Positions 25,925-45,349 of a stretch of DNA of 64,000 nt are shown piece by piece. Origin of the DNA: an uncultured Alphaproteobacteria bacterium. Its GTDB lineage: Bacteria > Pseudomonadota > Alphaproteobacteria > Puniceispirillales > Puniceispirillaceae. The notes beneath the pieces were generated by a model, which had not been told where the DNA came from, ran no database searches, and saw only the letters and a list, made by a program, of their open reading frames with translations. Position 1 is the first letter of the stretch, and every line of letters starts with the position of its first letter. A program made the translations under genes and the position numbers. The DNA is taken from positions 9,544 through 73,543 of the forward strand of contig CAJWVJ010000001.1 in the NCBI GenBank assembly GCA_913048595.1, given 5' to 3'.

Positions 25925-27069
25925 GCCGCGCTTCCCGTGCCGAACATGCCGGCACGGCCAAGACAGACGCCGTCGCGGCTGATCACAACCACCTCAACCT
26001 CGGTCGGCGCGCCACGAAGGTGCGCCAGCGCGGTGTCGCGCGCGCCTGCGGCGATGGTGGTCGCCAGCGCTGTGCGCTGCGAATCCGTTGCCATCTGCGA
26101 GACTTCAAGAACCGAATTCGCACGCGCCACCGCCGCGCGATCCATGCCGAGCGGCGGCGCCAGATCGGCAAGACGGTCGAAATCCACCTGCGAGCGCGCC
26201 GAATGAAGGTCGATCGCCCCCTGCGACAGCTTCACGAGCTTGCCGAACCCGCCAAGGATCGACAGGCGCGGCACCGGATGACGCCGCATGTATTTCAGCA
26301 TGCCGCCGACAAAATCGCCCATATCGATCAGCGCGATCTCGGGAAGGTCATACTCCCCCTGGCCCCAGGCTTCCGACGTGGCGCCTGTCGATCCCATGAC
26401 ATGAGGCAGGCTATTGGCCCGCGCCACATCGATCCCGCGATGGATCGAGGCGATCCAGGCCGAACAGGAAAAGGGCCTGACAACACCCGTTGTCCCCAGA
26501 ATCGAAATGCCGCCTTCGATGCCAAGCCGCGGGTTCCATGTCCTGGTCGCGATCTCGGCCCCGTCCGGCACCGAGATCTCGATCGCGACATCCATTGTCC
26601 CGCCAAGCGCCGCGGCAAGCTCGGCTACCGCATCCTGCATCATCTGGCGCGGCACAGGGTTGATGGCGGGCTCGCCGACCGCCACCGGCAGGCCGGGCTT
26701 GGTGATGGTGCCGACACCCTCGCCGCCGGAGAAAACCACCCCCTTGCCGGGCGCCCCCCGGCGCAGGGTGGCACAGATCATCGCGCCATGGGTGACGTCG
26801 GGATCATCACCGGCATCCTTGATGATCGCGGCGCGGAACCACTTCTCTTGCCCGTCGGCCCCTTGCCCGTCGTCCCCATGCGCGGTCTCGGCAACGGCGA
26901 GATCGGCGTTTTTGCCGCTTGGCGTGACAATTGTGACGCGATCAGGAAACTGCCCGGTGAGCATCGCCGTGTAGGCTGCATTCACGGCAGCGGTGGCACA
27001 TGTACCCGTGGTCCAGCCAAACCGGAGCTTCGTCTCGAGCCTGTCTTTCCGCGTCGCGGACCGGGTCAT
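25921..27069 (-). CDS. cbiD: Cobalt-precorrin-5B C1-methyltransferase
   Basis: GWTTGTCATAA, KDAGDDPDVTHG, NPRLGIEGGISILGTTG. Confidence 0.96.
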   Translation of the reverse strand: MTRSATRKDRLETKLRFGWTTGTCATAAVNAAYTAMLTGQFPDRVTIVTPSGKNADLAVAETAHGDDGQGADGQEKWFRAAIIKDAGDDPDVTHGAMICATLRRGAPGKGVVFSGGEGVGTITKPGLPVAVGEPAINPVPRQMMQDAVAELAAALGGTMDVAIEISVPDGAEIATRTWNPRLGIEGGISILGTTGVVRPFSCSAWIASIHRGIDVARANSLPHVMGSTGATSEAWGQGEYDLPEIALIDMGDFVGGMLKYMRRHPVPRLSILGGFGKLVKLSQGAIDLHSARSQVDFDRLADLAPPLGMDRAAVARANSVLEVSQMATDSQRTALATTIAAGARDTALAHLRGAPTEVEVVVISRDGVCLGRAGMFGTGSAA

Positions 27070-27210
27070 CTATCGGACACCTGTCGGGTTGGGCTTCAGC
27101 CTGTTTCCGGCCCGGCCGATTGGCCTTGCAGGTTGCGTGCTGTTACCGTTAACTGCCTTGATTAGTAGCGAATTTACATAAGCGAATCCACCACCACCGG
27201 ACCCGAGAAG

Positions 27211-28101
27211 ATGACCAGCGACAGCCACGACCATCCAGCCCGCCACGCCGGCAGCCTGCCGGCGCTGGACGCGCGCGAATGGCCGGTCTTCCAGCCGGGC
27301 TGGGTGTGGATGACAGGTGGCGGCCCGGGAGATCCGGGACTGATCACGCTTCACGCGCTGAACGCCCTGCAACAGGCCGATGTCATCATCTATGACGCAC
27401 TTGTCGATCCGGCGCTGCTGCGATGGGCGCGGCCCGGGGCGGACATCGAATATGCCGGCAAACGCGGCGGCAAACCCTCGCCAAGCCAGCGCGACATCTC
27501 GCTGCGTTTGATCGAACTTGCCCGCGGCAACAAGCGTGTGCTGCGCCTGAAGGGCGGCGATCCGTTCGTGTTCGGTCGTGGCGGCGAGGAAGCACAGACT
27601 CTGGTCCAGGCCGGAATCAATATCCGGGTCATTCCGGGAATTTCGGCCGGCATCGGCGGGCTTGCCTATGCCGGTATTCCGGTGACCCACCGCGACGTCA
27701 ACCAGTCAGTAACCTTCCTGTCAGGCCATGACCGCACCGGGCTGACGCCCTCCGCCATCGACTGGGACGGTCTTGGCCGAAGCGCGCAGGTCATCGTGAT
27801 GTATATGGCGATCAAGCATATGCCCGATATCTGCGAGAAGCTGATCGCCGCCGGCAGGCCGGCCGACGAACCGGTGGCCGTTGTCCGCAACGCCACCCGC
27901 GAGGATATGGCGGTGCTTGAGACAACGCTAGCAAAGGCGCCGGAGGATATTGTCGAAAGCGGAATCGGCGCCCCGGCGATCGTCTGCATCGGGCGGGTGG
28001 TTCTGATGCGCCAGTGCCTTGACTGGCTTGGCCAGATGGCGGGCGAGCCGGTGCGCGACACCGACCCGCTTGGCGTGCGTGCCGTCTCGGAAACAGGCTG
28101 A
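27211..28101 (+). CDS. cobA: Uroporphyrinogen-III C-methyltransferase
   Basis: GGGPGDPGLIT, YDALV, RLKGGDPFVFGRGGEE, IPVTHR. Confidence 0.95.
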   Translation: MTSDSHDHPARHAGSLPALDAREWPVFQPGWVWMTGGGPGDPGLITLHALNALQQADVIIYDALVDPALLRWARPGADIEYAGKRGGKPSPSQRDISLRLIELARGNKRVLRLKGGDPFVFGRGGEEAQTLVQAGINIRVIPGISAGIGGLAYAGIPVTHRDVNQSVTFLSGHDRTGLTPSAIDWDGLGRSAQVIVMYMAIKHMPDICEKLIAAGRPADEPVAVVRNATREDMAVLETTLAKAPEDIVESGIGAPAIVCIGRVVLMRQCLDWLGQMAGEPVRDTDPLGVRAVSETG

Positions 28102-29396
28102 TGGCATCGCATGGGCTGGTCGTGGCCGGCCTCACCTCGGGAAGCGGCAAGACAACGGTGACGCTTGGCCTTCTTCGCGCCATGACGCGCGCCGGACTGT
28201 CCGTCTGCGCGGCGAAATCCGGTCCTGACTATATCGATTCCGCCTTCCTTGCCGCAGCCAGCGGCGCGCCAGCGGTGAATCTCGACAGCCATGCCATGGT
28301 TCCGGCGCATCTGCGCCAGCTGGCAGCAGACAGCCCGTGCCCAATGCTTCTCATCGAGGGGGTCATGGGGCTGTTCGACGGCACCGATGGCGGCAGCGGC
28401 AGCACCGTGTCGGTGGCGGCGGCGTTGCGGGCTCCGGTGATGCTGGTTCTCGACGCCCGCCACCAGGGGCAGACAGCCGCCGTGCTTGCCGCCGGCATCG
28501 CCACGCAACTTCCGGACGGCGTTGCCCTTGCCGGGGTGGTGCTGAACCGCATCGCCTCGCCACGGCATCAGCTGCTGATCACCGAAGCGCTTGCCGACCG
28601 CGGCATCGCCATGTTCGGCAGCCTGCCTGCCAATGGCGATATTGAAATTCCCTCCCGCCATCTGGGGCTGGTGCAGGCGGCGGACCTTGCCGCCACCGGC
28701 GCTCTGGACCCTGTGATCGAACAGGCGGCGGACCTGGTCGCGGCGAATCTCGACCTGACAGCCATCGAAGCCGCCTTCCGCCAGCTTGCCGGATCGGACG
28801 ACCAGCCAACCCGGCTCCCCCCGCCGGGGCAGCGCATTGCCGTGGCGCGCGATGCCGCCTTCGGCTTTGCCTACGAGCATATGATGGCGGGCTGGCTGGC
28901 CGCCGGGGCCGAGATCACGACCTTCTCGCCACTGGCCAACGAGACGCCGGACAGCAGCGCCGATTTCATCTTCCTTCCCGGCGGCTACCCGGAACTGCAT
29001 CTGCCGGTCCTGTCATCCGCAGGCAGCTTTCTTGACGGGCTTCGCAAGGCGGCGGCGCGCGGCACGCGGATCTATGGCGAATGTGGCGGCTACATGGTGC
29101 TTGGCGACGCGATCACCGGTGCCGATGGTGAGAGCCACGACATGGCTGGCCTGCTGCGTCTGCAAACAAGCTTTGCCAGCCGCAAGCTGCATCTTGGATA
29201 TCGCCGGATGACCCCGCTGACCGGGTTCTGGCCGGGTCTGCCACCGGTTTCAGGCCATGAGTTCCATTACACAAGCGCCATCCGCGCCGAGGGCGACCCG
29301 CTGTTCGCGATGGCCGATGCCGGCGGGCGCGATCTCGGCACGACCGGCCTTGCGTCAGGGCCTGTCGCCGGGTCCTACGCCCATATCATCGCCTGA
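28101..29396 (+). CDS. cobB: Cobyrinate/hydrogenobyrinate a,c-diamide synthase
   Basis: SGSGKTT, KSGPDYID, IEGVMGLFDG, PSRHLGL, ECGG, HEFHY. Confidence 0.95.
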   Translation: MASHGLVVAGLTSGSGKTTVTLGLLRAMTRAGLSVCAAKSGPDYIDSAFLAAASGAPAVNLDSHAMVPAHLRQLAADSPCPMLLIEGVMGLFDGTDGGSGSTVSVAAALRAPVMLVLDARHQGQTAAVLAAGIATQLPDGVALAGVVLNRIASPRHQLLITEALADRGIAMFGSLPANGDIEIPSRHLGLVQAADLAATGALDPVIEQAADLVAANLDLTAIEAAFRQLAGSDDQPTRLPPPGQRIAVARDAAFGFAYEHMMAGWLAAGAEITTFSPLANETPDSSADFIFLPGGYPELHLPVLSSAGSFLDGLRKAAARGTRIYGECGGYMVLGDAITGADGESHDMAGLLRLQTSFASRKLHLGYRRMTPLTGFWPGLPPVSGHEFHYTSAIRAEGDPLFAMADAGGRDLGTTGLASGPVAGSYAHIIA

Positions 29397-29403
29397 CCGC
29401 CGG

Positions 29404-30189
29404 TCAGCCATCAGCGCCTGTGGCCCGGCCACGCTTCGGGCGAAGCACATGCACATGCTCGGCATCATAAAGCGCGCTGTCACGAAAATCGGTTGTCTGC
29501 GCCAGCGCCGGCCCGACAAAGATCAGCGCGGTGCGGGTGATCTTGGCCTCCTGAACCTTGGACCGGATGTCCGACAGCGTACCGTGAATATAGGATTCAT
29601 CCGGCCAGCCGACGCGGTAGGCCACAATCACCGGGCAATCCTCGCCATAGAGCGGGGCCAGATCACGCTCGATCTGCCGCAGATTGCGGACCGACAGGTG
29701 GATGGCCAGCGTCGCCCCGGTCCTGCCAAGGCTTGTCAGCTCCTCGCCCGGCGGCATCGCCGACGACTTCATCGCCGTGCGGGTGAGGATCAGCGACTGC
29801 GCCACCTCCGGCACTGTCAGCTCGATCCCCAGACCGGCGGCGGCGGCGGCATAGGCCGACACACCGGGCACGATCCTGTAGTCAATGCCGAGCGTCTTCA
29901 GCCGCCTGATCTGTTCGGCGATGGCGCCATAGAGCGACGGGTCGCCGGAATGTACCCGCGCCACATCCTGCCCCCTCTGATGCGCTGCCGCCATCTCGTC
30001 GATGATGTCGTCCAGCGTCAGCGACGCCGTGTCGATCACCCGCGCATCCGCCGGCGCGGCGGCGACAACAGCCTCGGGCACAAGCGATCCGGCATACAGA
30101 CAGACCTGGCAGCTTTCGATCAGCCGCAGCCCGCGCACCGTGATCAATTCGGGATCACCGGGCCCGGCACCGATGAAGTGAACCGTCAT
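29404..30189 (-). CDS. cobM: Precorrin-4 C11-methyltransferase
   Basis: VHFIGAGPGDPELITVRG, YAGSLV, HSGDPSLYGAIAEQ. Confidence 0.96.
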   Translation of the reverse strand: MTVHFIGAGPGDPELITVRGLRLIESCQVCLYAGSLVPEAVVAAAPADARVIDTASLTLDDIIDEMAAAHQRGQDVARVHSGDPSLYGAIAEQIRRLKTLGIDYRIVPGVSAYAAAAAGLGIELTVPEVAQSLILTRTAMKSSAMPPGEELTSLGRTGATLAIHLSVRNLRQIERDLAPLYGEDCPVIVAYRVGWPDESYIHGTLSDIRSKVQEAKITRTALIFVGPALAQTTDFRDSALYDAEHVHVLRPKRGRATGADG

Positions 30190-32045
30190 GAGGCTGCCTT
30201 TCCGTCGGTGTCGGTGGAATCAAGATGCCTGGCATAGCCGCGCGGGGTATAGACTGCGCTGCCACGGCCAAGGTCGATGCGGCGTGAAGAACTGGCCCCG
30301 ACCATCACCGTCGTCAGCATGTCGACCTCGTCGATATCGAGGCTTGCCAGCGTGCGATGCCTGATCGTCTCGTCCGGGCGGCCGAGATTGGCCGCCAGGA
30401 TCACCGGCACATCACCCCGATATCCGACAAGGATGTCACGCGCCGCGGCAAGCTGCGTGCGCCGCCGCATCGAGACCGGATTATAGAAGGCGACCACGAA
30501 ATCGCCGGCTCCGGCGGCGTGGATGCGCTTCTCAATGGCTTCCCACGGCGTCAGCAGGTCGGACAGAGAGATGGCGCAGAAATCATGGCCGAGGATGGCG
30601 CCGGACCGGGCCGCCGCCGCCTGCAGGGCCGAAATGCCCGGGGCGCTGACCACCTCGACGCGGCGGGCGGCATCGCTGACACCGCCATCCTCCTGCGAGC
30701 GGTCCAGAAGTTCATAGACAAGCGCGCCCATGGCATAGATGCCGGCATCGCCGGAGCAGATCACCGCGACATCCTTGCCGGTCGCGGCGGCTTCCAGCGC
30801 ATAGCGGCAGCGTGCCTCCTCCTCGCCAAGCTTGAAGTCACGGCGCGGGATATGCGCGGCGACCGCGCCAAGAAGGTCGATATAGAGGTCGTAGCCAACA
30901 AGCTCGTCCGCCCCCAGAATCAGACGCGACGCCTCTGGCGTGCGCCATTCCGCCTGTCCCGGCCCGATGCCGACCAGTATCACCCGGCCCGGCTTTCGCC
31001 CGCCAAGAGCCGCCTTGGCGACGGGGTGCGGCGCCAGTGCCAGCGCCATGGTGGCATTTGCCGATTTCGCCTTTGGATGAAACAGCGTCCCGTCAGGCCC
31101 GGCCGCGGCAAGGGCCGCCGCCTCGGCGACTCCGGGGATGCCGATCTCCTCTTCGACAACCTTCGACGGGTTGGCAAGGCGCGGGGCCTCGGCGGCCAGC
31201 GTCTCTCTGTCGAAAATCCGCAGCGGCACCGCCAGCATCGCGGCAAGCGCCTGAAGCGCGGGCTCATCCGCCTTCAGATCAACGCTGAAGACACCGGCGA
31301 CGGACGCGGCGTTGATATCGGCGCTGGCAAGCTCCTGCATCACCAGCTCGATCACCTCGTCGGCGCCGCAGCCGCGCGCACAGCCAACACCAAGCATCAC
31401 ATCCTGCGGGCAGTAGACAAGCTCGCTTTCGGACGGGGTGTGCTGGCGGCGGGTTACGGTCAGCGACACGGCATTGCCGCGCGGCACATTCTCGAACCAG
31501 TCATTCAGACCATCCAGACAGTCACCATCAATGAAGGCCCCGTCGCCGGCCAGCAGTTGCGGCATGACGCGCTGCGCCGCCGCCTTGTTGGCAAGCCGCC
31601 ATCCGGAAGGCGGCTCGTCCAGCGGAATACCCCAGCGGTCATCCCCGGCGGTGGTGATGGCAAGGGTGGCACCGACAGCGTCTGCTACCTGCCGCGCCAG
31701 GGTGATCGCCCCGTGATGGCCGCCGACAAGCGGCACAGCGACCCCGCCGCCCTCGGCAACGGCGATGACAGGCGCATCCGTGCTCTTGTGGCGCAGATGC
31801 GGGGCGACCGCCCGGATCAGGATGCCGGCGGCGCAGATTCCTATCACCGGCCGGCCGCTGCAGAACAGGTCGGCGATATGCGGCTTGGCCCGGCCGAAAT
31901 GATGCGGCGCGTCAGGACAGCGAACGGCATGACCGTGGATATCGGCGTCAATCGCCTCGGCAAGCCGCCCGGCAAGCGCCAGCCCGGCGCTCGACAGGCA
32001 CAGAATGACCGGCTTGGCAGGCGTGTCCGCCTTCAGCTGATCCAT
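30186..32045 (-). CDS. cobJ: CbiG-CobJ fusion (CbiG domains plus precorrin-3B C17-methyltransferase)
   Basis: N-terminal CbiG (AAGILIR, GGHHGA, ITTAGD, GVGC, GVAEAAA). C-terminal CobJ (VGIGPG, SGDAGIYAM, HDFCAISLSDLLTPW, YTPRGY). Confidence 0.94.
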   Translation of the reverse strand: MDQLKADTPAKPVILCLSSAGLALAGRLAEAIDADIHGHAVRCPDAPHHFGRAKPHIADLFCSGRPVIGICAAGILIRAVAPHLRHKSTDAPVIAVAEGGGVAVPLVGGHHGAITLARQVADAVGATLAITTAGDDRWGIPLDEPPSGWRLANKAAAQRVMPQLLAGDGAFIDGDCLDGLNDWFENVPRGNAVSLTVTRRQHTPSESELVYCPQDVMLGVGCARGCGADEVIELVMQELASADINAASVAGVFSVDLKADEPALQALAAMLAVPLRIFDRETLAAEAPRLANPSKVVEEEIGIPGVAEAAALAAAGPDGTLFHPKAKSANATMALALAPHPVAKAALGGRKPGRVILVGIGPGQAEWRTPEASRLILGADELVGYDLYIDLLGAVAAHIPRRDFKLGEEEARCRYALEAAATGKDVAVICSGDAGIYAMGALVYELLDRSQEDGGVSDAARRVEVVSAPGISALQAAAARSGAILGHDFCAISLSDLLTPWEAIEKRIHAAGAGDFVVAFYNPVSMRRRTQLAAARDILVGYRGDVPVILAANLGRPDETIRHRTLASLDIDEVDMLTTVMVGASSSRRIDLGRGSAVYTPRGYARHLDSTDTDGKAAS

Positions 32046-32740
32046 GGATCATCTCCCTTATAGACAAGGATCATCGAAAAATAGGGGGCGTCGTCAGGCG
32101 CCTCGTCCAATGTCAGCGCGCGCTGGCGCGGCAGCGAGGCATGCGAGGTATAGCGGGCCTTGCCCGCCAGACCCAGCCCGCCAAGAAGCGCGCGAAGCCG
32201 CGGCATGTGGCGGCCGATCTTCATGATGGCCACAGCGTCGGCACGGGTGATCGCCTCGCCGAGCGCGGCGTCATCAAGGGTGGCCGGCAGCACCGTCAGA
32301 ACATCGCTTCGCGCCACCAGCGGATGCGCCTGGGCTGCGGCACAGGCGGACAGGCTGTTGACCCCCGGCACGATCACCACCGGATAGGCGTCGCGAAGCC
32401 GCACCAGAAGATACATGAAGGACCCGTAGAACAGCGGATCGCCCTCGCACAGCAGCACCACATCCCGCCCGGCGTCGAGATGCGCGCCAATCTCGGCCGC
32501 CCCCCTGTCATAGATCGACTGCGCCGGCGCGCGGCCGGCGCGCATCGGCACGATCATCGGAATTTCCGTGGCATCGGGTCTGATCGCCTCGGCGACAATG
32601 GCGCGTGCGAAGCTCTCGCCGGAATCAGGGGCCGGATAGGCGATCACCTCTGCCGCCTCGACAAGCGCCCAGGCCCGCCGCGTGACCAGCTGCGGATCAC
32701 CAGGTCCGGTGCCAACGCCATAAAGGGTTCCGGCCGCCAT
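32033..32740 (-). CDS. cobI: Precorrin-2 C20-methyltransferase
   Basis: LYGVGTGPGDP, CEGDPLFYGSF, PYFSM. Confidence 0.95.
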   Translation of the reverse strand: MAAGTLYGVGTGPGDPQLVTRRAWALVEAAEVIAYPAPDSGESFARAIVAEAIRPDATEIPMIVPMRAGRAPAQSIYDRGAAEIGAHLDAGRDVVLLCEGDPLFYGSFMYLLVRLRDAYPVVIVPGVNSLSACAAAQAHPLVARSDVLTVLPATLDDAALGEAITRADAVAIMKIGRHMPRLRALLGGLGLAGKARYTSHASLPRQRALTLDEAPDDAPYFSMILVYKGDDPWIS

Positions 32741-32743
32741 GAT

Positions 32744-33934
32744 CTATCCCGGCCCCTGCCAGCACCATTGGGTGACAGGCATCAGCGGACGCCAACCGTG
32801 AAAGCCGCCAACCGGATCGGCATGCTGAACGGACAGGCGGACCAGATCACCGCCGCTTCGCTGCCAGGCGGCGATCAGAACGCTTTCGCTTTCGATGGTG
32901 ACCGCATGCGCGACCAGCCACCCGCCAGGCCGCACCGCCGCCTGCGCGGCCGTGATGACCGCTTCCGACATCCCGCCGCCAATGAACACCGCGTCTGGAC
33001 GTGGCAGGCCGGCAAGGGCATCGGCCACATCGCCCTCGACCGGCACAAGCCCGGTCACGCCATGCGTGCCGGCATTGGCAACGGCCCGGTCAAGCTGCGC
33101 CCGGCTGCGATCAATGGCATAGGCCGTGCCACGCGGCGCGTTGCGAAGGAAATCCACCGAAACGGCGCCAGACCCGCTGCCAATGTCCCAGAGCACCGCC
33201 CCCGGAAAAGGTGCCAGCTTGGCAAGGGCGCTTGCCCGCGCATCCCGCTTCGTCAGCTTGCCGTCATTGTCAAAACCGGAATCAGGGGCCGCCAGCCCGT
33301 GCGCCACCGGCCCGGCATCGGGACATTCGACCCCGATAATATGAAAATCGGGCACCCTGTCATGCGACCAGTCATGCGCCGTGCCATCGATCCGTGATTC
33401 CCCGGCCCCGCCAAGATGCGCCAGCACGTGAAGCCGGGCCCGGCCATAGCCGCGCGCGGCAAGAAGCTGTGCGACCTGCTGCGGGCTGCCGCCATCCTGC
33501 GCGATCACCAGAAGGCGGGCCCGCGGGTGAAGCGCCGCGCCAAGGCTGCCGACCGGCCTGCCATGGATGCTGACGACGCGGCATGCCGCCATCGGCCAGC
33601 CAAGACGAGCCGCGGCAAGCTGCAGCCCGGAGACCGCCGGAACCACCTCGCAGGCATCCGGGCCGAGCCTGCGAACAAGGCTCGCCCCGGCACCGAACCA
33701 CATCGGGTCCCCTGTTGCCAGAAGTGCAAGTGATTTCTTAGAATTTGTTTTCAATATATTGTAAATATGTGAAAATGGTGACGGCCAAACCTGAACTTCC
33801 GGTCCGTCGGGAAGGTCGCCGTGAAAGCGGGGGGCGGCAATGATCATATCCATGCCGGCGAGCCGCGCGCGGATCTCGGGTGACAGACTAGCCGCCCCGC
33901 CCTCGCCCACACCGATGACAAGCGGGCGGGCCAT
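32744..33934 (-). CDS. cobL: Precorrin-6B C5,15-methyltransferase/decarboxylase (CbiET)
   Basis: IGVGEGG, ATGDPMWFGAG, LTKRDAR, WDIGSGSG, PDAVFIGGG. Start trimmed to MARPLVIG. Confidence 0.94.
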   Translation of the reverse strand: MARPLVIGVGEGGAASLSPEIRARLAGMDMIIAAPRFHGDLPDGPEVQVWPSPFSHIYNILKTNSKKSLALLATGDPMWFGAGASLVRRLGPDACEVVPAVSGLQLAAARLGWPMAACRVVSIHGRPVGSLGAALHPRARLLVIAQDGGSPQQVAQLLAARGYGRARLHVLAHLGGAGESRIDGTAHDWSHDRVPDFHIIGVECPDAGPVAHGLAAPDSGFDNDGKLTKRDARASALAKLAPFPGAVLWDIGSGSGAVSVDFLRNAPRGTAYAIDRSRAQLDRAVANAGTHGVTGLVPVEGDVADALAGLPRPDAVFIGGGMSEAVITAAQAAVRPGGWLVAHAVTIESESVLIAAWQRSGGDLVRLSVQHADPVGGFHGWRPLMPVTQWCWQGPG

Positions 33935-34569
33935 CACGCCTCTTCCCCGCCGGCCAGAAGGGCCAGCGCGTTGACAACCGATGACGCCATGGCAGACCCG
34001 CCGCGCGTGCCGTGAACGGCAAGGAACGGTACCGTGGCCGCACTGGCAAGGTCCTGCTTGCTTTCCGCCGCACCGACAAAGCCGACCGGGCAGCCGATGA
34101 TGGCGGCCGGGCGCGGCCCGCCTTCCGCGATGATCTCGAGGCAGCGGAACAGGGTTGTCGGGGCGTTGCCGATCACCACGATCGCGCCCTCCAGCCGGTC
34201 GCGCCATAATTCCACCGCGGCCGCCGAGCGGGTTGTGCCGCGTTCCCTCGCCAGCCGGGGCGTCGCCGGGTCGTTCAGCGTGACGATGACGTCGTTCGCC
34301 GCGGGAAGAAACCGGCGGGTGATCCCGCTTGCCACCATTTCACAATCGCAGAACACCGGCGCGCCGCCGCGCATCGCATCAGTGGCCGCGCCGACGAAAC
34401 TGTCGGATGCCTCAAGGTCGCTGACAATATCCGGCATGCCGCAGGCATGTATCAGGCGCATGGCGACGCTGGCAAGCCCGTCGTCAAGACCGGACAGGTC
34501 TGCCGCCTCGCGAACGATGGCGAAGGATCTGGCGTAGATTTCCGCCGGGTCTGTCAGATACCCCCCCAC
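33934..34569 (-). CDS. cobH: Precorrin-8X methylmutase
   Basis: IYARSF, RLIHACG, TRSAAA, IGNAPT, PVGFVGAAESK, RGGSA. Confidence 0.96.
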   Translation of the reverse strand: MGGYLTDPAEIYARSFAIVREAADLSGLDDGLASVAMRLIHACGMPDIVSDLEASDSFVGAATDAMRGGAPVFCDCEMVASGITRRFLPAANDVIVTLNDPATPRLARERGTTRSAAAVELWRDRLEGAIVVIGNAPTTLFRCLEIIAEGGPRPAAIIGCPVGFVGAAESKQDLASAATVPFLAVHGTRGGSAMASSVVNALALLAGGEEA

Positions 34570-34578
34570 GGCAGACCG

Positions 34579-35706
34579 TCATCCGTCCGCCTTGTCGGCG
34601 GATTTCGCGGGTTTGCGGTGGCGAACCGATTCCGGGCCCAGCGGATGGTCCGCATGCGGATAGGGATGGTGGTGATGGTCGTGCCCGTGGTCATGATGGT
34701 GGTCATGGTCGTGACCATGGTGGTGGTGGTGATGTCCCTGGTCGAGACGGCAGGCTCCAGTGCAGAAATGGTCGCACAGATCGCAATCCTCGACATTGCT
34801 TCCGGGGGCGGATACACCCTGCCCCTCGACATGATGGTGGTGGCTCTGCTGCGCCTGCCCCACCTCATCCTCGAAGCCAAGGACCTGCGCGCGGTATTTG
34901 CACATGGCGCAGTTCATGTTGTTGCTGCCTTCCAGAATTTCACGAACGCGGTCGGCGAAGGTGGCGATCACCTTGGGATGGTCGCTCAGATAGCCGGCCT
35001 TGACGAATTCGATATCCGGATGGGCCGCCGCCACCTCGTCGGTGAAACCGTAGATGCGGTCGATGAGGATGCCGCTGAACAGGAAATAGGGGAAGACTAC
35101 GATCCGCTTGAACCCAAGCCTCGTCACATGCTCAAGACAGGGCTGGACAAGCGGGAAGGTCACGCCGGAATAGCCGACCTCGGCCCAGCCGAACCCCATG
35201 CCTTCCCACAGCATGCGGGAAATCTTCGAAATGTTCGAATTCGCGTCCGGGTCGGAGGCGCCGCGCCCGATCACCACGAGGCATGTCTCGGCGCGGTCGA
35301 CCGGCCCGCCGGCGGCGTCGGCGGCGTCGATGGCGGCGGCGATGCGCTCGCCGGCGGCCTGCAGCATCTGCAGGTCAACGGCCAGCTCGCGGCCATACTG
35401 GATGGTGATGCCATGTTCGGCAGCATAGGTGTTCAGGACCGACGGAATGTCATTCTTGGCGTGGCCGGCGGCAAACAGCATGCCAGGCACCGCCAGGACA
35501 TGGTTCACCCCCTGCTCGCGAAGCTTGTCGAGGCCGGTATTGATCACTGGCGTGGCGAATTCCAGATAGCCGTATTCGACCGGCCAGTCAGGGAACATCG
35601 GCGCCAGCTTTTCAGCCAGAACGGCGAATTCGGTCACGGCGGATTTCGAGCGCGAGCCATGCCCGCAGATCATCACGCCATATTTCGGTGCGGCTGCCTC
35701 ATGCAT
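34579..35706 (-). CDS. cbiX: Long CbiX-type sirohydrochlorin chelatase with Cys motifs and His-rich tail
   Basis: GHGSR, YLEFATP, AGHAKNDIP, GRGASDPDAN, MNCAMCKYR, CDLCDHFCTGAC, poly-His tail ending HPYPHADHPLGP. Confidence 0.92.
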   Translation of the reverse strand: MHEAAAPKYGVMICGHGSRSKSAVTEFAVLAEKLAPMFPDWPVEYGYLEFATPVINTGLDKLREQGVNHVLAVPGMLFAAGHAKNDIPSVLNTYAAEHGITIQYGRELAVDLQMLQAAGERIAAAIDAADAAGGPVDRAETCLVVIGRGASDPDANSNISKISRMLWEGMGFGWAEVGYSGVTFPLVQPCLEHVTRLGFKRIVVFPYFLFSGILIDRIYGFTDEVAAAHPDIEFVKAGYLSDHPKVIATFADRVREILEGSNNMNCAMCKYRAQVLGFEDEVGQAQQSHHHHVEGQGVSAPGSNVEDCDLCDHFCTGACRLDQGHHHHHHGHDHDHHHDHGHDHHHHPYPHADHPLGPESVRHRKPAKSADKADG

Positions 35707-35974
35707 GGGCCTTGTCTCCTGTCGCCTCTGTATCTTCGGCTTCGCTGTCCTCGGCGGTGGATGCGGCATCATCCCGCGGCCTGACCACTGCCAGCCCGGC
35801 CGCGACAACGGCTGCCGCGCCCGCAAGCCCGGCCGCTACCAGATGGCCATGGCCGGCAAGCTCGCCAAGATGCCCCCAATGCGCCATGACGGTCGCCGGG
35901 TTCAGCATCGCGATGGTCATGACGGTGGCCGCGACCATCGATGTCTGTGTTGCGGGCAAAGGGTGGGGCATCAT
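35699..35974 (-). CDS. Small membrane protein with AHWGH/GHGH motif (DUF6732-like)
   Basis: Signal-like segment ending MA-HWGHLGELAGHGH, then a TM helix and acidic tail. SD AAGGA at 35982-35986 (tandem ATGs 35971-35977). Stop overlaps the cbiX start. Confidence 0.7.
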   Translation of the reverse strand: MMPHPLPATQTSMVAATVMTIAMLNPATVMAHWGHLGELAGHGHLVAAGLAGAAAVVAAGLAVVRPRDDAASTAEDSEAEDTEATGDKAHA

Positions 35975-35982
35975 CATTAGTT

Positions 35983-36160
35983 CCTTGCGGCGTCGCGCGG
36001 CGGTTGCATTTCGGGCGGCAAGGGCAGATGAAAACAGTCCTATGGCGGATGCGCCTGCAACCCGCTCATGTCCCTGGTCCGAGGCCCGGGTTTGGTGCCC
36101 TGCCTGGGTCCACCGCACCGGGGTCGTTTTCATCTTGTCGCCAAGTCCACCGACCTTACC
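35983..36160 (-). promoter_or_regulatory. Candidate structured leader RNA of the cbiX operon (unassigned family)
   Basis: Perfect 10-bp closing helix (36026-36035 with 36126-36135) enclosing three hairpins, plus alternative pairings that include an anti-SD helix. Folded by eye only. Confidence 0.5.
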
Positions 36161-36225
36161 TAGATTGTAGCCGAAACTCCCGAATGGAATTGCACGCAAG
36201 CGACCAAAGTTGAATTATACCGACG

Positions 36226-37203
36226 ATGACTGACTGGCCCCCGATCCTCGGCCTTGCCTTTGCCGCCCTTGCCACGCGCGCCACCATCCTGCTGGCCGCG
36301 CTGGCCATCGACTGGCTTGTCGGCGAGCCTGATCTGCTGTGGCGCCGGGTTCCACACCCGGTGGTGCTGTTCGGGCGCGCCATCTCCTTTATGGACAGGC
36401 ATTTGAACAAACGACGTGGCGTCACCGGCAAGTCCCGGCAGGCGCGAGGGGCGCTGGCGATTCTGGCCCTTGTCTGCCTTGCGGCGACAGGGGGATGGGT
36501 CCTGTCCTTTGGCGGACCGGTTGTCAGCTGCCTTGTGCTGGCGGTCCTGCTGGCCGCGCGGTCGCTTGACGAGCATATACGGGCGGTTGCGGCGGCCATG
36601 GAAGACGGCCTCGCGCCGGCCCGCCGCGCTGTCGGGATGATTGTCGGACGCGACACCAGCGGCCTGAAGAAGGCCGACATCGCCCGCGCCGCCATCGAGA
36701 CAGGGGCGGAGAACCTGTCGGACGGGGTGATCGCACCGGCGATCTGGTTCCTTGTCGCCGGGCTTCCCGGGCTTTTGGTCTACAAGATGGTGAACACCGC
36801 CGACAGCATGATCGGCTATCGCAATGCCCGCTACCGGGCCTTTGGCAGCGCGGCGGCGCGGCTTGATGATGGTCTGAATCTGATCCCGGCGCGGGTAACG
36901 GCATTGCTGATCTGCGCGGCGGCGGCGCTTCACGGGCGCGGTCCGGCGGCCTTTCGCGTCATGAAGGCGGACGCAAGGCACCATGCCTCGCCAAATGCCG
37001 GATGGCCGGAGGCGGCGATGGCCGGCGCGATCAATGTCTGGCTTGCCGGTCCGCGCCGGTACGGCAACCGGGTGCGCCAGGCGCGGCGGTTCAACGAGAC
37101 CGGCCGCATCGCCGACGCCGCCGCCATTCTGGCCTCGCTTCGCATGCTGATCATGGCACAGCTGGTCTTTGCGCTTCTGGTGCTTCTATTCGTGCTGATC
37201 TAG
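36226..37203 (+). CDS. cobD: Adenosylcobinamide-phosphate synthase (CobD/CbiB)
   Basis: [45 protein letters not shown]. Confidence 0.96.
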
Positions 37204-38681
37204 AGACCGGCGATCCGGGCAAAGCTGTCCAGATCGAGATTGGCCGCCATATGCGCGGCCAGCTTATCCAGCGTTTCATCCACCCGCGAGTCGAAATCCA
37301 CCTCGCCAAACGCGCCGCTTCGCCCGCGCCGCGCCGCCAGCCAATCCAGAAAAGCGCGCCGGAACCCGTCATCCGCGAAAATCCCGTGAAGATAGGTGCC
37401 GATGACCCGGCCATCGGCGGACATCGCCCCTTCCGGCCTGCCATCCAGCGTCAGGAACGGCGTGGCGCAATCCGGCCCGGCGGTGCGCCCCATATGGATT
37501 TCATACCCGCTGACCGGCCTGTCGAACCCGTTGGCATGAGCGGTGACGCGGGTCAGCCGCTTGTCACCTGCCAGCATCGTCTCGACCCTCAGATGGCCAA
37601 GCCCGTCCGTAGCACCAGCCGGCCCCTCGACTCCCTGCGGGTCGTCAAGCCTTGTCCCCAGCATCTGATACCCACCACACAGCCCCATCACCACGCCGCC
37701 GCGCCGCAGATGCGCGGCAAGGTCGATGTCCCAGCCCTGCGCGCGGAAAAAGGCCAGATCGGATATGGTGGATTTCGAGCCCGGAAGCAGCACCATGTCG
37801 GCATCCGGCGGGATCACGTCGCCGGCCTCGACCAGAACGACATCCACATCAGGCTCGCCGGCAAGCGGATCAAGATCGTCGAAATTGGCGATGCGGCGCA
37901 GCACCGGCACGGCGATCCTCACCGGCGCGCCGTCTCGCGCCTCGCCGGCCTTGCCCTTGATATCGAGAATATCCTCGGCGGGAAGGAAGCGCGCCGGCGG
38001 GAACCAGGGAAGGATGCCGATCCCCTGCCATCCAGTGGCGCGCCGGATAATCTCCATGCCCTCGGCGAACAATGTGGTATCGCCGCGGAACTTGTTGATC
38101 AGGAATCCCTTGATCAGCGCGCGGTCGGCGGCCTCGAGGACGGCGTCGGTGCCGACGAGGCTGGCGATGACGCCGCCGCGGTCGATGTCACCCACGATCA
38201 CCACCGGCACATCCGCGGCGACGGCAAAGCCCATATTGGCAATGTCGCCGGCGCGAAGATTGACCTCGGCCGGGCTTCCCGCACCCTCGACGATGACCAG
38301 ATCGGCATCGCGCCCGATGATCTCGAAACTGTCCAGAACACGGGGCAACAGCTCGGCCTTGTGGGTGCCGTATTCGCGGGCCCGCATGCTGCCGAACCGC
38401 TGGCCCTGGACGATGATCTGCGATCCCGTCTCGCTTTCCGGCTTCAGCAGGACCGGATTCATATGGACCGATGTCGGGGCGCGGCAGCCGCGTGCCTGCA
38501 TCGCCTGCGCGCGGCCTATCTCGCCGCCATCCTCGGTCACGGCGGCGTTGTTTGACATGTTCTGCGGCTTGAACGGGCGTACCCGCAGCCCGGCATCGGC
38601 GAAATGCCGGCAGAGACCGGCGACAAGCACCGACTTGCCGACATTCGAGCCGGCCCCCTGCAGCATGATGGTGGCCGGCAT
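37200..38681 (-). CDS. cobQ: Cobyric acid synthase
   Basis: [46 protein letters not shown]. Confidence 0.97.
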
Positions 38682-39313
38682 CAGAATTCGACGCCGATCT
38701 GCGCCTTGATTCCCGACCGGAAGGGATGTTTGACAAGCGTCATCTCGGTTGCCAGATCGGCGATCTCGATCAGCTCCTCGGCGGCATTGCGGCCGGTCAT
38801 CACCACATGCGTCATCTCGGGTTTTTCCGTTTCCAGAAACGCGATCACCTCGGCAAGCGGGATGTAGCCATAGCGAAGCGCGATGTTGATCTCGTCGAGA
38901 AGCACCATGTGGTTGCGATCGTCGCGGATCAGTTCCTTGGCCTTTTCCCAGGCGGCGGTGGCGGCGGCGATATCGCGCTCGCGGTCCTGTGTCTCCCAGG
39001 TGAACCCCTCGCCCATGGTGTGGAATTCACAAAGCGAGCCGAAATGGCCGCTGATCAAATTACGCTCGCCTGTGTCCATGCCACCCTTGATGAACTGCAC
39101 CACGGCGCATTTCAGCCCGTGCGCGATGCAACGGAAGATCATCCCGAATGCCGCCGATGATTTGCCCTTGCCCTTGCCGGTATGGACGATCAACAGGCCC
39201 TTTTCACTGGTCTTTGTCGCCATGATCTTGTCGCGCGCCTGCTTCTTGCGCGCCATCTTGGCGTTGTGGCGTTCGGTATCAGAAGGGGGTGTCTCATCTG
39301 CTGGGCTGGTCAT
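38681..39313 (-). CDS. cobO: Cob(I)yrinic acid a,c-diamide adenosyltransferase
   Basis: [37 protein letters not shown]. Confidence 0.97.
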
Positions 39314-42300
39314 GACGCTGTCTCCCGGGGTGATGTGCGAAGCCGCTCGAGGTCAGCCTGCACGCTGTTGCGGCGCGGTGTCCAGAGGCCGCGTTCGATG
39401 GCCTCTTCGAAGCGGTCGAGCATATCCTGATAGGCCGCGTCATTCGTCCGTTCAAGAAAATCACGGACATGATCATCCTCGATATAGGCCTGGTACAGGG
39501 CGGCGAAATGATATTCCGCCACCTGCCGCGTCGTGGCCGAGAAGGCGAACAGATAATCCACCGTTGCCGCCATCTCGAACGCGCCCTTGTATCCATGGCG
39601 CATCGCGCCCTCGATCCATTTCGGATTGCCGGCCCGCCCGCGGACAACACGGCCGATTTCCTCGCCAAGCGTGCGGATCACCGGCCGTTCGGCAAGCGAA
39701 TGGTCATTGTGATAGATTGGCACGTCGCGGCCCGACAAATGCGCCACCGCCGCCGACAGGCCGCCGGCAAACTGATAGTAGTCATCACTGTCGAGGATGT
39801 CATGCTCGCGGTTGTCCTGGTTGTGCAGCACCGCTTCGGACGCGGACAGGCGCGCCTCGAGAACATCACGCGCTTCGATGCCCTCGGCATGCTCGCCGTA
39901 AGCATGCCCCGACCAGATCAGGAAGGCCTCGGCGAAATCGGACCTGTCCTGCCATAATTTCTCGTCGATCAGGGCCTGAAGCCCGGCCCCGTAGGCGCCC
40001 GGCCTGGCGCTGAAGATGCGAAGCGTGCTGCGGCGAAGCGCGGACGCCTCGTCAACGCCGTTGCGGCGGGCTTCGGCGGTCTCGCGGCGCGCGGCGGCGG
40101 CGATGGGGTTCAATTCTTCCGGCTCGTCCAGCGCGGCAAGCGCCCGCACTGCCCGGTCGAACAGCGTCATCTGCCCCGGAAACGCATCGCGGAAGAAACC
40201 GGAGCAGCGAAGACAGACATCCACCCGCGGCCTGTCCAGAACGTCCAGCGGGATGATCTCGAAACCGGTGACGCGGCGCGAACTGGCGTCCCATGACGGG
40301 CGAACCCCCATCAGCGCCAGCGCCTGCGCGATGTCATCACCACCGGTGCGCATGTTCGATGTGCCCCAGGCCGACAGCACCACTGCCCGCGGCCAGTTGC
40401 CATGATCCATCAGATGCCGGTCAAGCAACGCCTCGGCAGACGCCCAGCCAAGCCGCCAGGCCACCGGGGTCGGCAGGGCCCGGCTGTCGATCGAGAAGAA
40501 GTTCCGTCCGGTCGGCAGCACCTCCGGCCGGCCGCGTGTCGGCGCACCGGAGGCCCCCGGCGGAATGAACCGCCCTGACAGGCCGCGAAGAAGGGCCTCT
40601 CTCTCGCGCGGGCCGCAGGCGTCAAGCCGGTCACGAATGGCGGGAAGCGCATTCTCGATGATGTCCTGTGAAGCTGGCCCCACCGGCACCGCCGTCCCTT
40701 CGACCATGGCGGCGGCAAGCCTGTCGATTCGTTCCACCGTGTCGCCCGTGCTACGCCAGGGATCGGATGACTGCGCCGCCAGAACCGGCGGGCGATCCGC
40801 CGTCCAGGGCGCGCCGCGCTCGGCCGTCAGCGGGTCGAACCCGTCATCCGAAGTGTCTGATGATGACAGACCAAGATCACCGGCGATGGCCCGCGGCAGG
40901 GCAGCATGCGGCCCCTCGCCATCACCGCGCGGGGTCCGCAGGATCTGTGTCAGCAACCCGTTGGCAAGTCTGGTGTCGGGCGACTCACCGAAGACATGCA
41001 GCCCGTCACGAATCTGCATTTCCTTGAGGTCACAGAGGTAGTTATCCAGCTTCAGCAGCTGCTCGGCCGCGTCCTCGGCCGCGTCGATGCCGCAGTCAGC
41101 GGTGATTCCCGCCCGCGTCGCCGTCGCCAGAATATCGGACAGCAGCGCGTCGGACCGCGCCCGGTCCATGCCGGCGGCCTCGTAATATTCATCCATCTGC
41201 GCTTCCAGCTCGGCCATCAAGCCATGGCTGTCCGCCTGCGCCATCGGCGGGGTCAGATGGTCGATGATCACCGCCGCCGTGCGGCGCTTGGCCTGCGCGC
41301 CCTCGCCCGGGTCGTTGACGATAAAAGGATAAAGATGCGGTATCGGCCCCAGAACCGCCTCGGGAATACACGCGGCCGCAAGGGCCAGCGCCTTGCCGGG
41401 AAGCCATTCCAGATTACCGTGCTTGCCGAAATGCACCACGGCATCAATGCCGAATTCATGGCGCATCCACCAATAGAGCGCGAAGTAGTTATGCGGCGGC
41501 ACCAGATCGGGCGAGTGATATGTGGCCTTGGGGTCGATGTTGTAGCCGCGCGCCGGCTGCACCGCGACAAGCACATGGCCGTAGCGGCGAAGCGGCAGGC
41601 GGATCGCCTCGCCGTCACACATCGGGTCATCCGCAGGATCGCCCCAGCGCGCGATGACTGCCTCGCGAAGCGGGTCGGGAAGCCTGTCGAAGACAGCGCG
41701 GTAGGACTGCAGCGGCATGGCGGCGTCGCAGACGCGTCCCTGCCAGCCTTCATTGGTCGGACCTGCGCGAAGATCGGCGACGAGCGCGGCGCTGTCCTGC
41801 GGTAAGGCCCCCAGTTGATAGCCGGCATCCGCCATCGCCGTCATCGCGGCACAGGCGCTTGCCGGGGTGTCGAGCCCGACCCCGTTTGCAAGCCTGCCGT
41901 CACGGTTCGGGTAATTCGCCATGACAAGCGCGACCCTGGCTCTGGCGGCGTCAGTCCGGCGAAGCCGCGCCCAGCCGGCGGCAAGTGTCGCGACATAGGC
42001 CGCCCGATCCGGCACCGCTTCATAGCCCGTCGTCATCGCATGGGTCAGCGGGTCGCGCTGCGGCGGCCGCTTGAACCCGACAGCGCGGGTCAGCAGCCGC
42101 CCGTCAAGTTCGGGAAGCGCCACATTCATCGCCAGGTCTCGCGCTGTCAGGCCGGCGGTGGACCCGGTCCAGTCCTCGACCCGGCTTGCTGCCAGAACAA
42201 GCTGCAGCACCGGCGCGTCAACCGCGCCAAAGGGCCCGACCGAGGCAACACCGGGCATCGTATCCCCGGCCGCTGCCGGATCCGACACGGCAAAACTCGT

Positions 42301-43119
42301 CATGTTCAGAATGACGTCGGCCTGTGCCTCGGCTAGAAGCGCGGCAATTATCGGCGCGGCGTCACCATCCTTCAGGCTGGCGCTGAACAGCGGCAGTGGA
42401 TTCAGCCCGGCATCACGGCAGGCGGTGATCATCGCATCCACCGGCGCCAGATCGTCCGCCTGAAGCAGGGCACGGTAGAAGATGATGGCGGCCACAGGCG
42501 CGCCGGCGATCCAGTCACCGGACAGCGAGGCCAGATCGGGCATATCCCGCCCCGGCCAGTAGATGCCGGCGCGAAGAAGCGGGCGCGGCGGCGCGGCCAT
42601 CGCGGTGCCGTCGAGAAGGTCGCTTATGGCGTGAAGAAAGGCCAGCGCATTGTCCTTGCCGCCGGCATCAAGATAGGCGGACAGTGACCGGCAGACCTCC
42701 GTGTCGAAGGATGACAGGTAGTCGAGTTCGGGGTCGGGGCGCGCGTCACCGGGAAGAAAGACGACCGGCACACCGCCGGATACCGCCTGCGCGCGAAGCT
42801 GTTGCACGCCATAGGACCAGTAGGCGCTGCCGCCAAGAAGCCTGACCACCACCAGCCGCGCCGCGGCGACGGTATTGGCGATATATTGATCGACCGAAAA
42901 GGGGTGACTGAGGCTGAGATAATTGGCGACCCGCACCCGCGGCGCATCCGTCCTGACCTCATCATCGTTACCCTGAAACGCGGCCACGGCGGCGGACAGC
43001 AGGCTGACCTCGGTATCGGCAGATGTCAGGATGACGATATCGCCCGGCGGCTGGCCGAGATCGACGGCCTCGTCGGAATCATAAAGGGCACCGCCCTCTT
43101 CGACCCTAAGAAGATGCAT
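39310..43119 (-). CDS. cobN: Cobaltochelatase subunit CobN
   Basis: MHLL N-terminus, VALPELDG, HFGKHGNLEWLPGK, LPTGRNF, YYQFAGG, NPKWIEG. 1269 aa. Confidence 0.97.
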   Translation of the reverse strand: MHLLRVEEGGALYDSDEAVDLGQPPGDIVILTSADTEVSLLSAAVAAFQGNDDEVRTDAPRVRVANYLSLSHPFSVDQYIANTVAAARLVVVRLLGGSAYWSYGVQQLRAQAVSGGVPVVFLPGDARPDPELDYLSSFDTEVCRSLSAYLDAGGKDNALAFLHAISDLLDGTAMAAPPRPLLRAGIYWPGRDMPDLASLSGDWIAGAPVAAIIFYRALLQADDLAPVDAMITACRDAGLNPLPLFSASLKDGDAAPIIAALLAEAQADVILNMTSFAVSDPAAAGDTMPGVASVGPFGAVDAPVLQLVLAASRVEDWTGSTAGLTARDLAMNVALPELDGRLLTRAVGFKRPPQRDPLTHAMTTGYEAVPDRAAYVATLAAGWARLRRTDAARARVALVMANYPNRDGRLANGVGLDTPASACAAMTAMADAGYQLGALPQDSAALVADLRAGPTNEGWQGRVCDAAMPLQSYRAVFDRLPDPLREAVIARWGDPADDPMCDGEAIRLPLRRYGHVLVAVQPARGYNIDPKATYHSPDLVPPHNYFALYWWMRHEFGIDAVVHFGKHGNLEWLPGKALALAAACIPEAVLGPIPHLYPFIVNDPGEGAQAKRRTAAVIIDHLTPPMAQADSHGLMAELEAQMDEYYEAAGMDRARSDALLSDILATATRAGITADCGIDAAEDAAEQLLKLDNYLCDLKEMQIRDGLHVFGESPDTRLANGLLTQILRTPRGDGEGPHAALPRAIAGDLGLSSSDTSDDGFDPLTAERGAPWTADRPPVLAAQSSDPWRSTGDTVERIDRLAAAMVEGTAVPVGPASQDIIENALPAIRDRLDACGPREREALLRGLSGRFIPPGASGAPTRGRPEVLPTGRNFFSIDSRALPTPVAWRLGWASAEALLDRHLMDHGNWPRAVVLSAWGTSNMRTGGDDIAQALALMGVRPSWDASSRRVTGFEIIPLDVLDRPRVDVCLRCSGFFRDAFPGQMTLFDRAVRALAALDEPEELNPIAAAARRETAEARRNGVDEASALRRSTLRIFSARPGAYGAGLQALIDEKLWQDRSDFAEAFLIWSGHAYGEHAEGIEARDVLEARLSASEAVLHNQDNREHDILDSDDYYQFAGGLSAAVAHLSGRDVPIYHNDHSLAERPVIRTLGEEIGRVVRGRAGNPKWIEGAMRHGYKGAFEMAATVDYLFAFSATTRQVAEYHFAALYQAYIEDDHVRDFLERTNDAAYQDMLDRFEEAIERGLWTPRRNSVQADLERLRTSPRETAS

Positions 43120-44968: not shown

Positions 44969-45081
44969 TGGGCGTCCCCCTTCGAACCGTCAGGTTCGTC
45001 TGTATGCGGGGAATCGTGTCGCCGACAGCGCAATCAAGGCTCGCTTCACGGCATACCCCGGCCGTTGCAATTCTGGCTTCA

Positions 45082-45262
45082 AAGGCAGGTCTCCTGGCTC
45101 GAGGTCGTGGCCCGGCACCCTTCCCGGAAGCACGCTTCCAGTGGGATCCTGACGGGCGACCATCTTACAGTCGCGGGGACGGCTATGGCTTAGGGCAGTC
45201 ATTTTTCACCCTCACCATATTCCCTCATTAAGGCATGGAGCTTTGCTCCACAGCCACCTTCA
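45082..45262 (-). ncRNA. Cobalamin (AdoCbl-type) riboswitch
   Basis: Minus strand reads AAGGU...UUAAUGAGGGAAUAUGGUG...AAGCCAUAGCCGUCCCCGCGACUGUAA...CCACUG...CGGGAAGG...GAGCCAGGAGACCUGCC, i.e. the B12 box and all core motifs. Confidence 0.95.
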
Positions 45263-45349
45263 AGGCTGACAAATATTGGTCTGATTCTGCGGCATCCTGT
45301 CAACCAATTGCGTCACCGAATGGTCCGCCACCGCCATGCGCCGGAACGG

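Follow-up and report, generated by a model that had tools for sequence, protein, structure and literature searches.

The leader between two divergent genes in the 64,000-nucleotide stretch of DNA analysed here (the window) encodes, on its minus strand, a structured RNA that recurs ahead of corrin-ring biosynthesis genes. The first-pass annotation of this DNA had proposed an unannotated, riboswitch-like, cis-regulatory RNA at this site, drawn on the minus strand; homologues, covariation and scans uphold that proposal and show the RNA to be conserved, to lie on the minus strand and to be absent from Rfam. We establish here the fold of the RNA, its functional strand, its gene context and the homology of its arms to the P2 and P4 arms of cobalamin riboswitches. 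On the basis of folding models, we lean, with somewhat better than even confidence, towards the view that it acts on translation as a ligand-stabilised OFF riboswitch, that it stems from the 5' half of a class-I cobalamin (Cbl-I) riboswitch, and that it would control the DUF6732-cbiX-cobH-L-I-J-M operon.

Genomic context of the leader

The leader is the gap between the divergent cbiB gene, which begins at 36226 on the plus strand, and a minus-strand run of genes, DUF6732-cbiX-cobH-cobL-cobI-cbiG-cobJ-cobM. The features of the neighbourhood are:

29404-34569, minus strand: corrin-ring genes cobH, cobL, cobI, a cbiG-cobJ fusion and cobM (ORF layout; co-transcription is predicted)
34579-35703, minus strand: cbiX, a large class II chelatase with a His tail (PF01903, E = 7e-49; Cys motif and His-rich tail in the sequence)
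35699-35977, minus strand: DUF6732 small protein, operon gene 1 (Pfam PF20506, E = 1e-12; ATG at 35977, 35974 or 35971)
36226-37203, plus strand: cbiB/cobD, divergent, bounding the leader (PF03186)
45067-45276, minus strand: canonical cobalamin riboswitch ahead of hupE-cobW-cobN-cobO-cobQ (RF00174, 99.5 bits), context outside the element

Family scans supplied the names cobH, cobL and cbiG-cobJ; the names cobI and cobM come from sequence and general knowledge and are presumably right. CbiX, CbiG and CbiD, with no CobG match in the window's 69%-complete genome, point toward the early-cobalt route of corrin synthesis; cobN and cobW are also present. The cluster at 25112-43119 thus mixes early-route cbiX, cbiG and cbiD with late-route cobN and cobW and holds two candidate cobalt chelatases. 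By its His tail, Cys motif and operon, cbiX here would fit the CbiX-L cobalt type as part of PMC7689651 describes it; some alphaproteobacterial CbiX-family proteins are ferrochelatases (PMC4063343, in part). The canonical cobalamin riboswitch is the sole Rfam match in the 64-kb window, and its L4 also has an inserted hairpin.

Homologues share a three-way junction

A CbiX search of 61 related genomes yielded 27 loci with both cbiX and cbiB, and the same non-coding core is found in all 27. A structure-blind MAFFT alignment of the homologues, folded with RNAalifold, reveals a shared three-way junction of 80 nt at 36155-36076 on the minus strand, made up of P1, a P2 hairpin, a 10-nt joining strand (J2/3) and a P3 arm with an inserted hairpin that bears a 2-nt bulge. 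The parts of the leader, in their expected order of transcription, are:

36164-36169, minus strand: -10-like hexamer (transcription start predicted just ahead of P1)
36076-36155, minus strand: conserved three-way-junction RNA, putative aptamer (MAFFT and RNAalifold, pair counts, tree-null covariation)
36147-36155, minus strand: P1 5' strand (junction-proximal pairs G-C in 21/27 relatives; both-side changes in 3 and 6 sequences at two columns)
36133-36146, minus strand: P2 hairpin, equivalent of the Cbl-I P2 arm (length variable in the family; 3 pairs at E < 0.05 in a register partly chosen by pairing; 4 inner pairs 100% paired in the structure-blind alignment A1)
36123-36132, minus strand: J2/3 strand, with a putative T-loop-like start and then a Cbl J3/4 remnant (contains G36131 and A36124)
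36085-36122, minus strand: P3 arm, equivalent of Cbl P4, with a split T-loop-like cap (100% paired across the 27 sequences from SAR116; one pair reaches E = 0.025)
36094-36114, minus strand: inserted hairpin with the 2-nt bulge G36110, A36109 (strongest covarying pair, E = 0.008; bulge GA in 68/70 members, AA in 2/70)
36076-36084, minus strand: P1 3' strand (resembles the start of Cbl P5 in Rhizobiales members)
36042-36069, minus strand: variable linker hairpin, the P4 of the first-pass annotation (sequence not conserved)
36026-36035, minus strand: putative anti-aptamer strand, partner of the P2 3' strand and J2/3 (duplex z = -5.1 versus shuffles; cotranscriptional folding)
36014-36024, minus strand: putative switch strand, partner of either the P2 loop (36142-36138) or the Shine-Dalgarno (SD) sequence (folding analysis)
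35982-35988, minus strand: SD region of the DUF6732 gene (sequence)

On the structure-blind alignment, RNAalifold scores 15 of 22 pairs as compensated, and counts over the 27 SAR116 sequences find both-side changes in 14 of 26 pairs. Covariation was also measured on 121 distinct rows against a tree-based null: of 2485 column pairs, the ten that score highest are all base pairs of the three-way junction, 5 of them at E < 0.05 and none of those 5 in P1. Since this 121-row alignment was anchored partly by pairing, with nine P1/P2 registers set by hand and an uncertain P1 register in locus L073, the structure-blind counts are important. An 84-sequence alignment that had been fitted to the model has 92.8% of its cells paired. 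A further MAFFT alignment, A2, was misregistered at its 5' end and was not used. Three unpaired bases, G36131, A36124 and the bulged A36109, are invariant in 70/70 members that had been retrieved without a DNA pattern. Covarying structure with invariant unpaired bases within a 5' leader is a general trait of riboswitches, and this RNA shows it.

Every segment and pairing that the first-pass annotation had listed for this leader is present at its coordinates. The four-way junction that it had assembled from them is the minimum-free-energy (MFE) fold of 35960-36180, a region that is overall no more stable than shuffles (z = +0.89), and is not a conserved sensing fold, its P3 and P4 being unconserved. 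Only one of its helices, named P2 there (36122-36085) and P3 here, is conserved, and it had missed the conserved P1 (36155-36147 with 36084-36076) and P2 (36146-36133). Relatives do share a conserved, covarying structure, though it is three-way rather than four-way. The perfect 10-bp helix that was to close the four-way junction, 36135-36126 with 36035-36026, is modestly above chance, a helix of at least 10 bp arising in 19 of 1000 dinucleotide shuffles. As the closing helix of an aptamer it would abolish the conserved P2 and J2/3, and it is better read as an anti-aptamer pairing. Wobble pairs had been said to leave the strand unsettled; across homologues, G·U wobbles number 241 against 13 C·A, an excess that fixes the minus strand as the functional one. 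In the window's genus the 5' strand of P1 could alternatively pair with the last bases of J2/3, a reading that was dropped since distant members break it.

Distribution and downstream genes

Model R1 matched 43 of the 151 genomes of the order, and the matches inspected all lie ahead of DUF6732 or cbiX; two weak matches are chance. A pattern scan of species genomes gave at least 119 matches and at least 81 added non-duplicate members, which among the matches listed are mostly from Rhizobiales such as Jiella, Aurantimonas, Afifella, Nitratireductor and Devosia. After 12 of 137 parsed pattern matches were dropped by eye as chance coding matches, the family set comprises 125 parsed members among the matches listed, from SAR116, Rhizobiales and other alphaproteobacteria. 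Locus L076 was left out of the counts: its weak model match at about 1500-1583, which is probably chance, lies upstream of a gene for a His-rich protein, which we take to be a nickel-insertion protein, and has no bulged hairpin. The named records with closely similar leaders are SAR116/Puniceispirillales, and we take the window to belong to that group.

Presence of the RNA follows that of cbiX in SAR116 genomes, among the matches listed, in that cbiX is found in 23 of 23 genomes with the RNA and has no match in 8 of 8 without it. The RNA is not universal across the class, where it lies within 1.5 kb of 6 of the 28 best cbiX loci. The next gene of the 125 members is cbiX in 99, DUF6732 on short loci in 13 and of CbiG_C type in 5 (1 by eye), and 8 loci are too short; all members with a readable next gene thus stand ahead of a cbiX-type operon or a CbiG_C gene. 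From metagenomes we obtained 99 unique matches, 91 of which pass a structure filter. These 91 precede cbiX (43), a CbiG_C-type gene (17, 10 by eye) or DUF6732 (1), with 29 too short and 1 false.

Two other explanations of the conserved sequence were tried and rejected. A MITE/REP repeat is ruled out by a single copy in the window's 69%-complete genome and by one strong match in each genome searched. A coding extension, ORF 35699-36199, is ruled out as well: its frame is open in 29/113 members and the phases are evenly spread (41/37/35), so this ORF is no real extension. In 8 of the 24 metatranscriptome runs listed, contig X4 spans 36045-36142 without differences and contig X8 bridges 35949-36133; contigs do not reveal strand, start or level, and these two are a weak hint that the leader occurs in RNA libraries.

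Relationship to cobalamin riboswitches and other known RNAs

The first-pass annotation had stated that the leader lacks cobalamin-riboswitch motifs. This is true only of the 3' half of a cobalamin riboswitch; for the 5' half, Cbl-I P2, the L2B T-loop and P4 all have counterparts here. Model R1 weakly matched the 5' halves of two genuine cobalamin riboswitches, and model R2, built from members only, gave 14 non-member matches in class and phylum searches, 9 of which are 5' halves of RF00174 riboswitches, L346, L348 and L360 among them. In register with cobalamin riboswitches (L074 and L077), the RNA aligns near one-to-one over P2, the T-loop strand, J3/4, P4 and the inserted hairpin, and the spacing to P4 is near-identical, equal in L074 and one base longer in several others. 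The closest likeness is to an alphaproteobacterial form of Cbl-I with a hairpin in L4 (L346, L348, L360, L454-L458), which shares the P2 arm, the T-loop-like strand and a split-loop P4 with a bulged hairpin; the same bulged hairpin occurs in full-length switches L346, L348 and L360, and the bulged A also in L454-L458. Three metagenomic members ahead of cbiX have a Cbl-like 5' end and are intermediate in form (L245, L254, L312).

In Cbl-I, by definition, P3-P6 meet in a four-way junction, P5 contributes a kissing loop, and T-loops sit in the P2 arm and in L4 (PMC7367189, in part), and its pocket consists of J3/4 and J6/3 (PMC7689651, in part). By register, the P2 arm with its proximal T-loop and P4 with the L4 T-loop are present, with a T-loop geometry that we infer and with L4 letters that are not kept in family f156; the assignment of the J2/3 start as a T-loop likewise follows from the Cbl-I register and is putative. 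The RNA also shares with Cbl-I a site ahead of B12-related genes and a predicted OFF mode by sequestration of the ribosome-binding site. It differs in having no P3, P5, P6, kissing loop or B12 box, in an altered J3/4 whose partner is gone, and in a P1 that closes right after P4, so that the P3-P6 four-way core is replaced by a three-way junction. RF00174 (gathering score 31.5 bits) gives no match at the locus at E up to 10 and none on 20 member loci. The B12-box pattern is found in 0/125 members, single hexamers occurring in 3-14 of 125 in counts that have no control, and none of the 99 unique metagenome matches is a full-length cobalamin switch, although the search pattern allowed Cbl letters. 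With the P2 arm and P4 of Cbl-I kept and the rest missing, the RNA is therefore a relative of the class, not a member of it, and its sequence makes the 5' half of a Cbl-I riboswitch its likely ancestor.

Other known RNAs resemble it less closely. The TPP riboswitch has a pyrimidine-sensing T-loop, and it too presents a hairpin followed by a T-loop-like strand. However, the Rfam scans of members gave no TPP match, the weak matches of the family model are cobalamin switches, and the gene context is unrelated. The NiCo riboswitch is a four-way junction, and the first-pass annotation had seen a resemblance to it. Like NiCo/czcD, the RNA is a compact leader near a cobalt-handling gene, but it is three-way and predicted OFF, its downstream genes are biosynthetic, and the NiCo model, RF02683, gives no match at the locus at E up to 10. 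NiCo riboswitches are metal-activated, have four metal-binding guanines and lie ahead of exporters (PMC7689651, in part); a conserved four-way junction of that type with metal-binding guanines is absent, the four-way fold being unconserved in homologues. The 'snugglers', ligand-switched variants such as those of ykkC (PMC10043782, in part), are also relatives of a common class with a narrower gene set, but the RNA described here has lost half of the aptamer and has a rewired junction.

The Rfam 15 scans of the region and of the member loci are at chance level; in the region there are two chance-level matches at E up to 10 and no credible one. We found no published description of this RNA in the literature searched, which covers few subscription journals. 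By term search, no cbiX or cobalamin-pathway motif appears in the main texts of PMC11109978, PMC8632094 and bioRxiv 10.64898/2026.10.21.760802 or in one supplement of PMC8632094. As a separate observation, a cobalamin riboswitch at locus L353 is followed, about 430 nt further downstream on its strand, by a yybP-ykoY manganese riboswitch (2155-2314).

Predicted switching of the expression platform

In the predicted pathway, the three-way junction would form first during transcription. The emerging strand 36035-36014 would then invade P2 and J2/3, its anti-SD part would be caught by the P2 loop, and the ribosome site would be left open (ON). If the junction were held instead, the anti-SD strand would pair over the SD sequence (OFF). 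The four-way fold of the first-pass annotation is likely this ligand-free ON state, as judged from folding models. We infer that the bulged A may dock into the J2/3 T-loop and brace a new pocket.

Holding the junction raised the predicted cost of opening the SD in 76/113 members and lowered it in 17/113. Because any folding constraint biases this cost upward, the platform was shuffled in 48 hand-picked diverse members, with 8 shuffles each. The effect of holding the junction exceeded that in the shuffled platforms in 39/48 members (median 2.3 versus 0.35 kcal/mol); the member genomes are related rather than independent, so these counts and the p-value overstate the significance. Anti-aptamer strands track changes in aptamer sequence in SAR116, with z below -1 in 22/40 leaders and above 0 in 11/40, the latter being no better than shuffles on the tested segment.

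In the window copy, the junction is the MFE fold of the prefixes ending at 36074 and 36039 and not of the prefix ending at 36059. In longer prefixes, 36035-36026 invades P2 and J2/3, 36021-36017 is caught by the P2 loop, and the core of the emerging SD is free. Once the leader is complete, the anti-SD/SD helix prevails in either state (ddG -0.1), and the junction is about 8 kcal/mol costlier than the free fold. There is no equilibrium switch in this copy, and therefore its ON state would be kinetic. The folding tests thus favour an OFF switch across the family, not at equilibrium in the window copy. Both competing pairings that the first-pass annotation had proposed exist, and the anti-SD pairing fits the OFF logic of the family; the segments of the other, GGUUGCA and UGCAACC, each occur in 1/40 SAR116 leaders, which in both cases is the window's own.

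A start site at the TACAAT hexamer had also been suggested. A TAnnnT box ends 7-11 nt ahead of P1 in 39/40 SAR116 leaders, but a consensus scanner reports no full promoter; the promoter/terminator scan of the leader gives no hint of an intrinsic terminator. At 8 loci of family f156, P1 stops 1-3 nt ahead of the SD. Such minimal versions, whose P1 reaches to within a few bases of the SD and which have no separate platform (L371-L379 of f156, L216, L219, L255, L436, L440 and L442), are good experimental constructs.

Devosia carries the RNA in both synthesis contexts

A strong match is found in 50/61 Devosia genomes. In three tested genomes the RNA lies ahead of cbiX and there is no CobG; in two others it lies ahead of a CbiG_C gene, with no cbiX match and with CobG or a near-cut-off CobG. 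The joining strand is identical in the cbiX (n=3) and CobG-like (n=2) genomes, and retention of the RNA with the same joining strand in both routes argues against a ligand confined to one route, such as cobalt-sirohydrochlorin. Many Devosia genomes have a lone CbiG_C/cobE-like gene in place of cbiX-to-cobM and cobG-cobH-I-J-M elsewhere, and others retain cbiX (L099 1575-2024, L341, L345, L415-L444). From sequence, this pattern looks like a route swap inside one genus.

Candidate ligands and alternative explanations

Within the OFF-riboswitch reading, we tentatively place first a ligand that is a corrinoid product common to both routes, though we hold this choice with well under even confidence. 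It could be a cobalamin in a novel binding mode, or else one of the late products of ring synthesis (such as cobyrinate, hydrogenobyrinate or cobinamide), and would give feedback repression. Against this reading stands the loss of the Cbl pocket (the P3-P6 junction, J6/3 and the kissing loop), so that a corrinoid would need a new binding mode; 17/113 members shift the opposite way, and the window copy is one that has no equilibrium switch. The same fold might instead sense a transition metal, Co2+ or else Ni2+/Fe2+, and lower the chelatase and the putative metal-binding small proteins at high metal. The first genes are usually a His-tailed chelatase, DUF6732 with its His-rich motif or a HupE/UreJ protein (L071), and cobalt, being common to both routes, would fit the Devosia result too. 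We nevertheless regard metal sensing as unlikely, given neither a NiCo match nor a conserved four-way junction; shutting down ring synthesis when cobalt is plentiful is hard to rationalise, and in many Devosia the CbiG_C gene is the sole gene under the RNA. Alternatively, the leader would bind a protein, and an operon product, for example a CbiG_C/CobE domain or CbiX, would repress its own translation. A CbiG_C domain is encoded in the window operon by cbiG-cobJ, the fusion recurs in three other cbiX operons that we read (L342-L344), and the domain is that of the lone downstream gene in many Devosia. We rank a protein-binding leader below metal sensing in probability, since a small ligand would also account for an origin in a metabolite aptamer and for the invariant unpaired purines of the T-loop-like motifs, the gene in Devosia may be what a deletion left behind, and RNA binding by CbiG_C is hypothetical.

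Lower again we would put a ligand-free relic, left by the decay of a cobalamin riboswitch and retained to stabilise the 5' end or to damp translation at a fixed level. Half of the ancestral aptamer is lost, the window copy has no equilibrium switch, and some Devosia members have almost no platform (L436, L440, L442), but decay is hard to square with unpaired bases that are invariant across distant families, with anti-aptamer strands that track aptamer changes and with the high retention in Devosia. Least probable by far is that the four-way junction closed by 36135-36126 with 36035-36026 is itself a NiCo-like sensing fold. It is the MFE of the window copy, but the hexamer of its 3' P1 strand occurs in 13/40 SAR116 leaders, its P3 and P4 are unconserved, it would destroy the covarying P2, and RF02683 is unmatched at E up to 10; the conservation pattern largely refutes it.

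Under the preferred OFF-riboswitch reading, two related switches may be at work. A canonical cobalamin switch is also present in 5/5 member genomes checked, about 9 kb upstream in the same cluster in 3/5. The RNA described here is found solely ahead of ring-synthesis genes, and the canonical switch heads the cobW-cobN operon of the same cluster. It is conceivable, at a little less than even confidence, that a new class arose when the back half of a cobalamin switch was deleted and the front half closed into a pocket of its own that senses something other than intact cobalamin (a corrin ring product lacking the base or the metal, or cobalt); two related switches reading different pathway points would then govern ring synthesis and the insertion of cobalt. 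If a ligand is bound, the RNA would be a natural example of an aptamer remade through the loss of half of its structure, one that can be compared with close full-length relatives and with intermediates, and SAR116 and other alphaproteobacterial B12 producers would tune ring synthesis independently of the canonical B12 switch that their cluster also holds. With its 80 nt the RNA would be easy to probe and crystallise, and a corrin-intermediate sensor would be useful for B12 strain engineering. Its retention ahead of the lone CbiG_C/cobE gene in Devosia offers a handle on the role of that gene.

Neighbouring genes and sequences

The gene right after the RNA often encodes a small protein, either DUF6732, HupE/UreJ-like or unnamed, that has a His motif and whose N-terminus is hydrophobic (window 35699-35977, L071, L150, L207). 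From their sequences, these small first-gene proteins possibly serve cobalt binding or uptake. Between the divergent genes, a block at 36186-36226 is conserved across the window's family. Read on the plus strand, it presents a -35-like hexamer at 36190-36195, a 17-nt spacer and an AT-rich hexamer at 36213-36218, with the ATG of cbiB 7 nt on; cbiB has no visible SD and may be leaderless.
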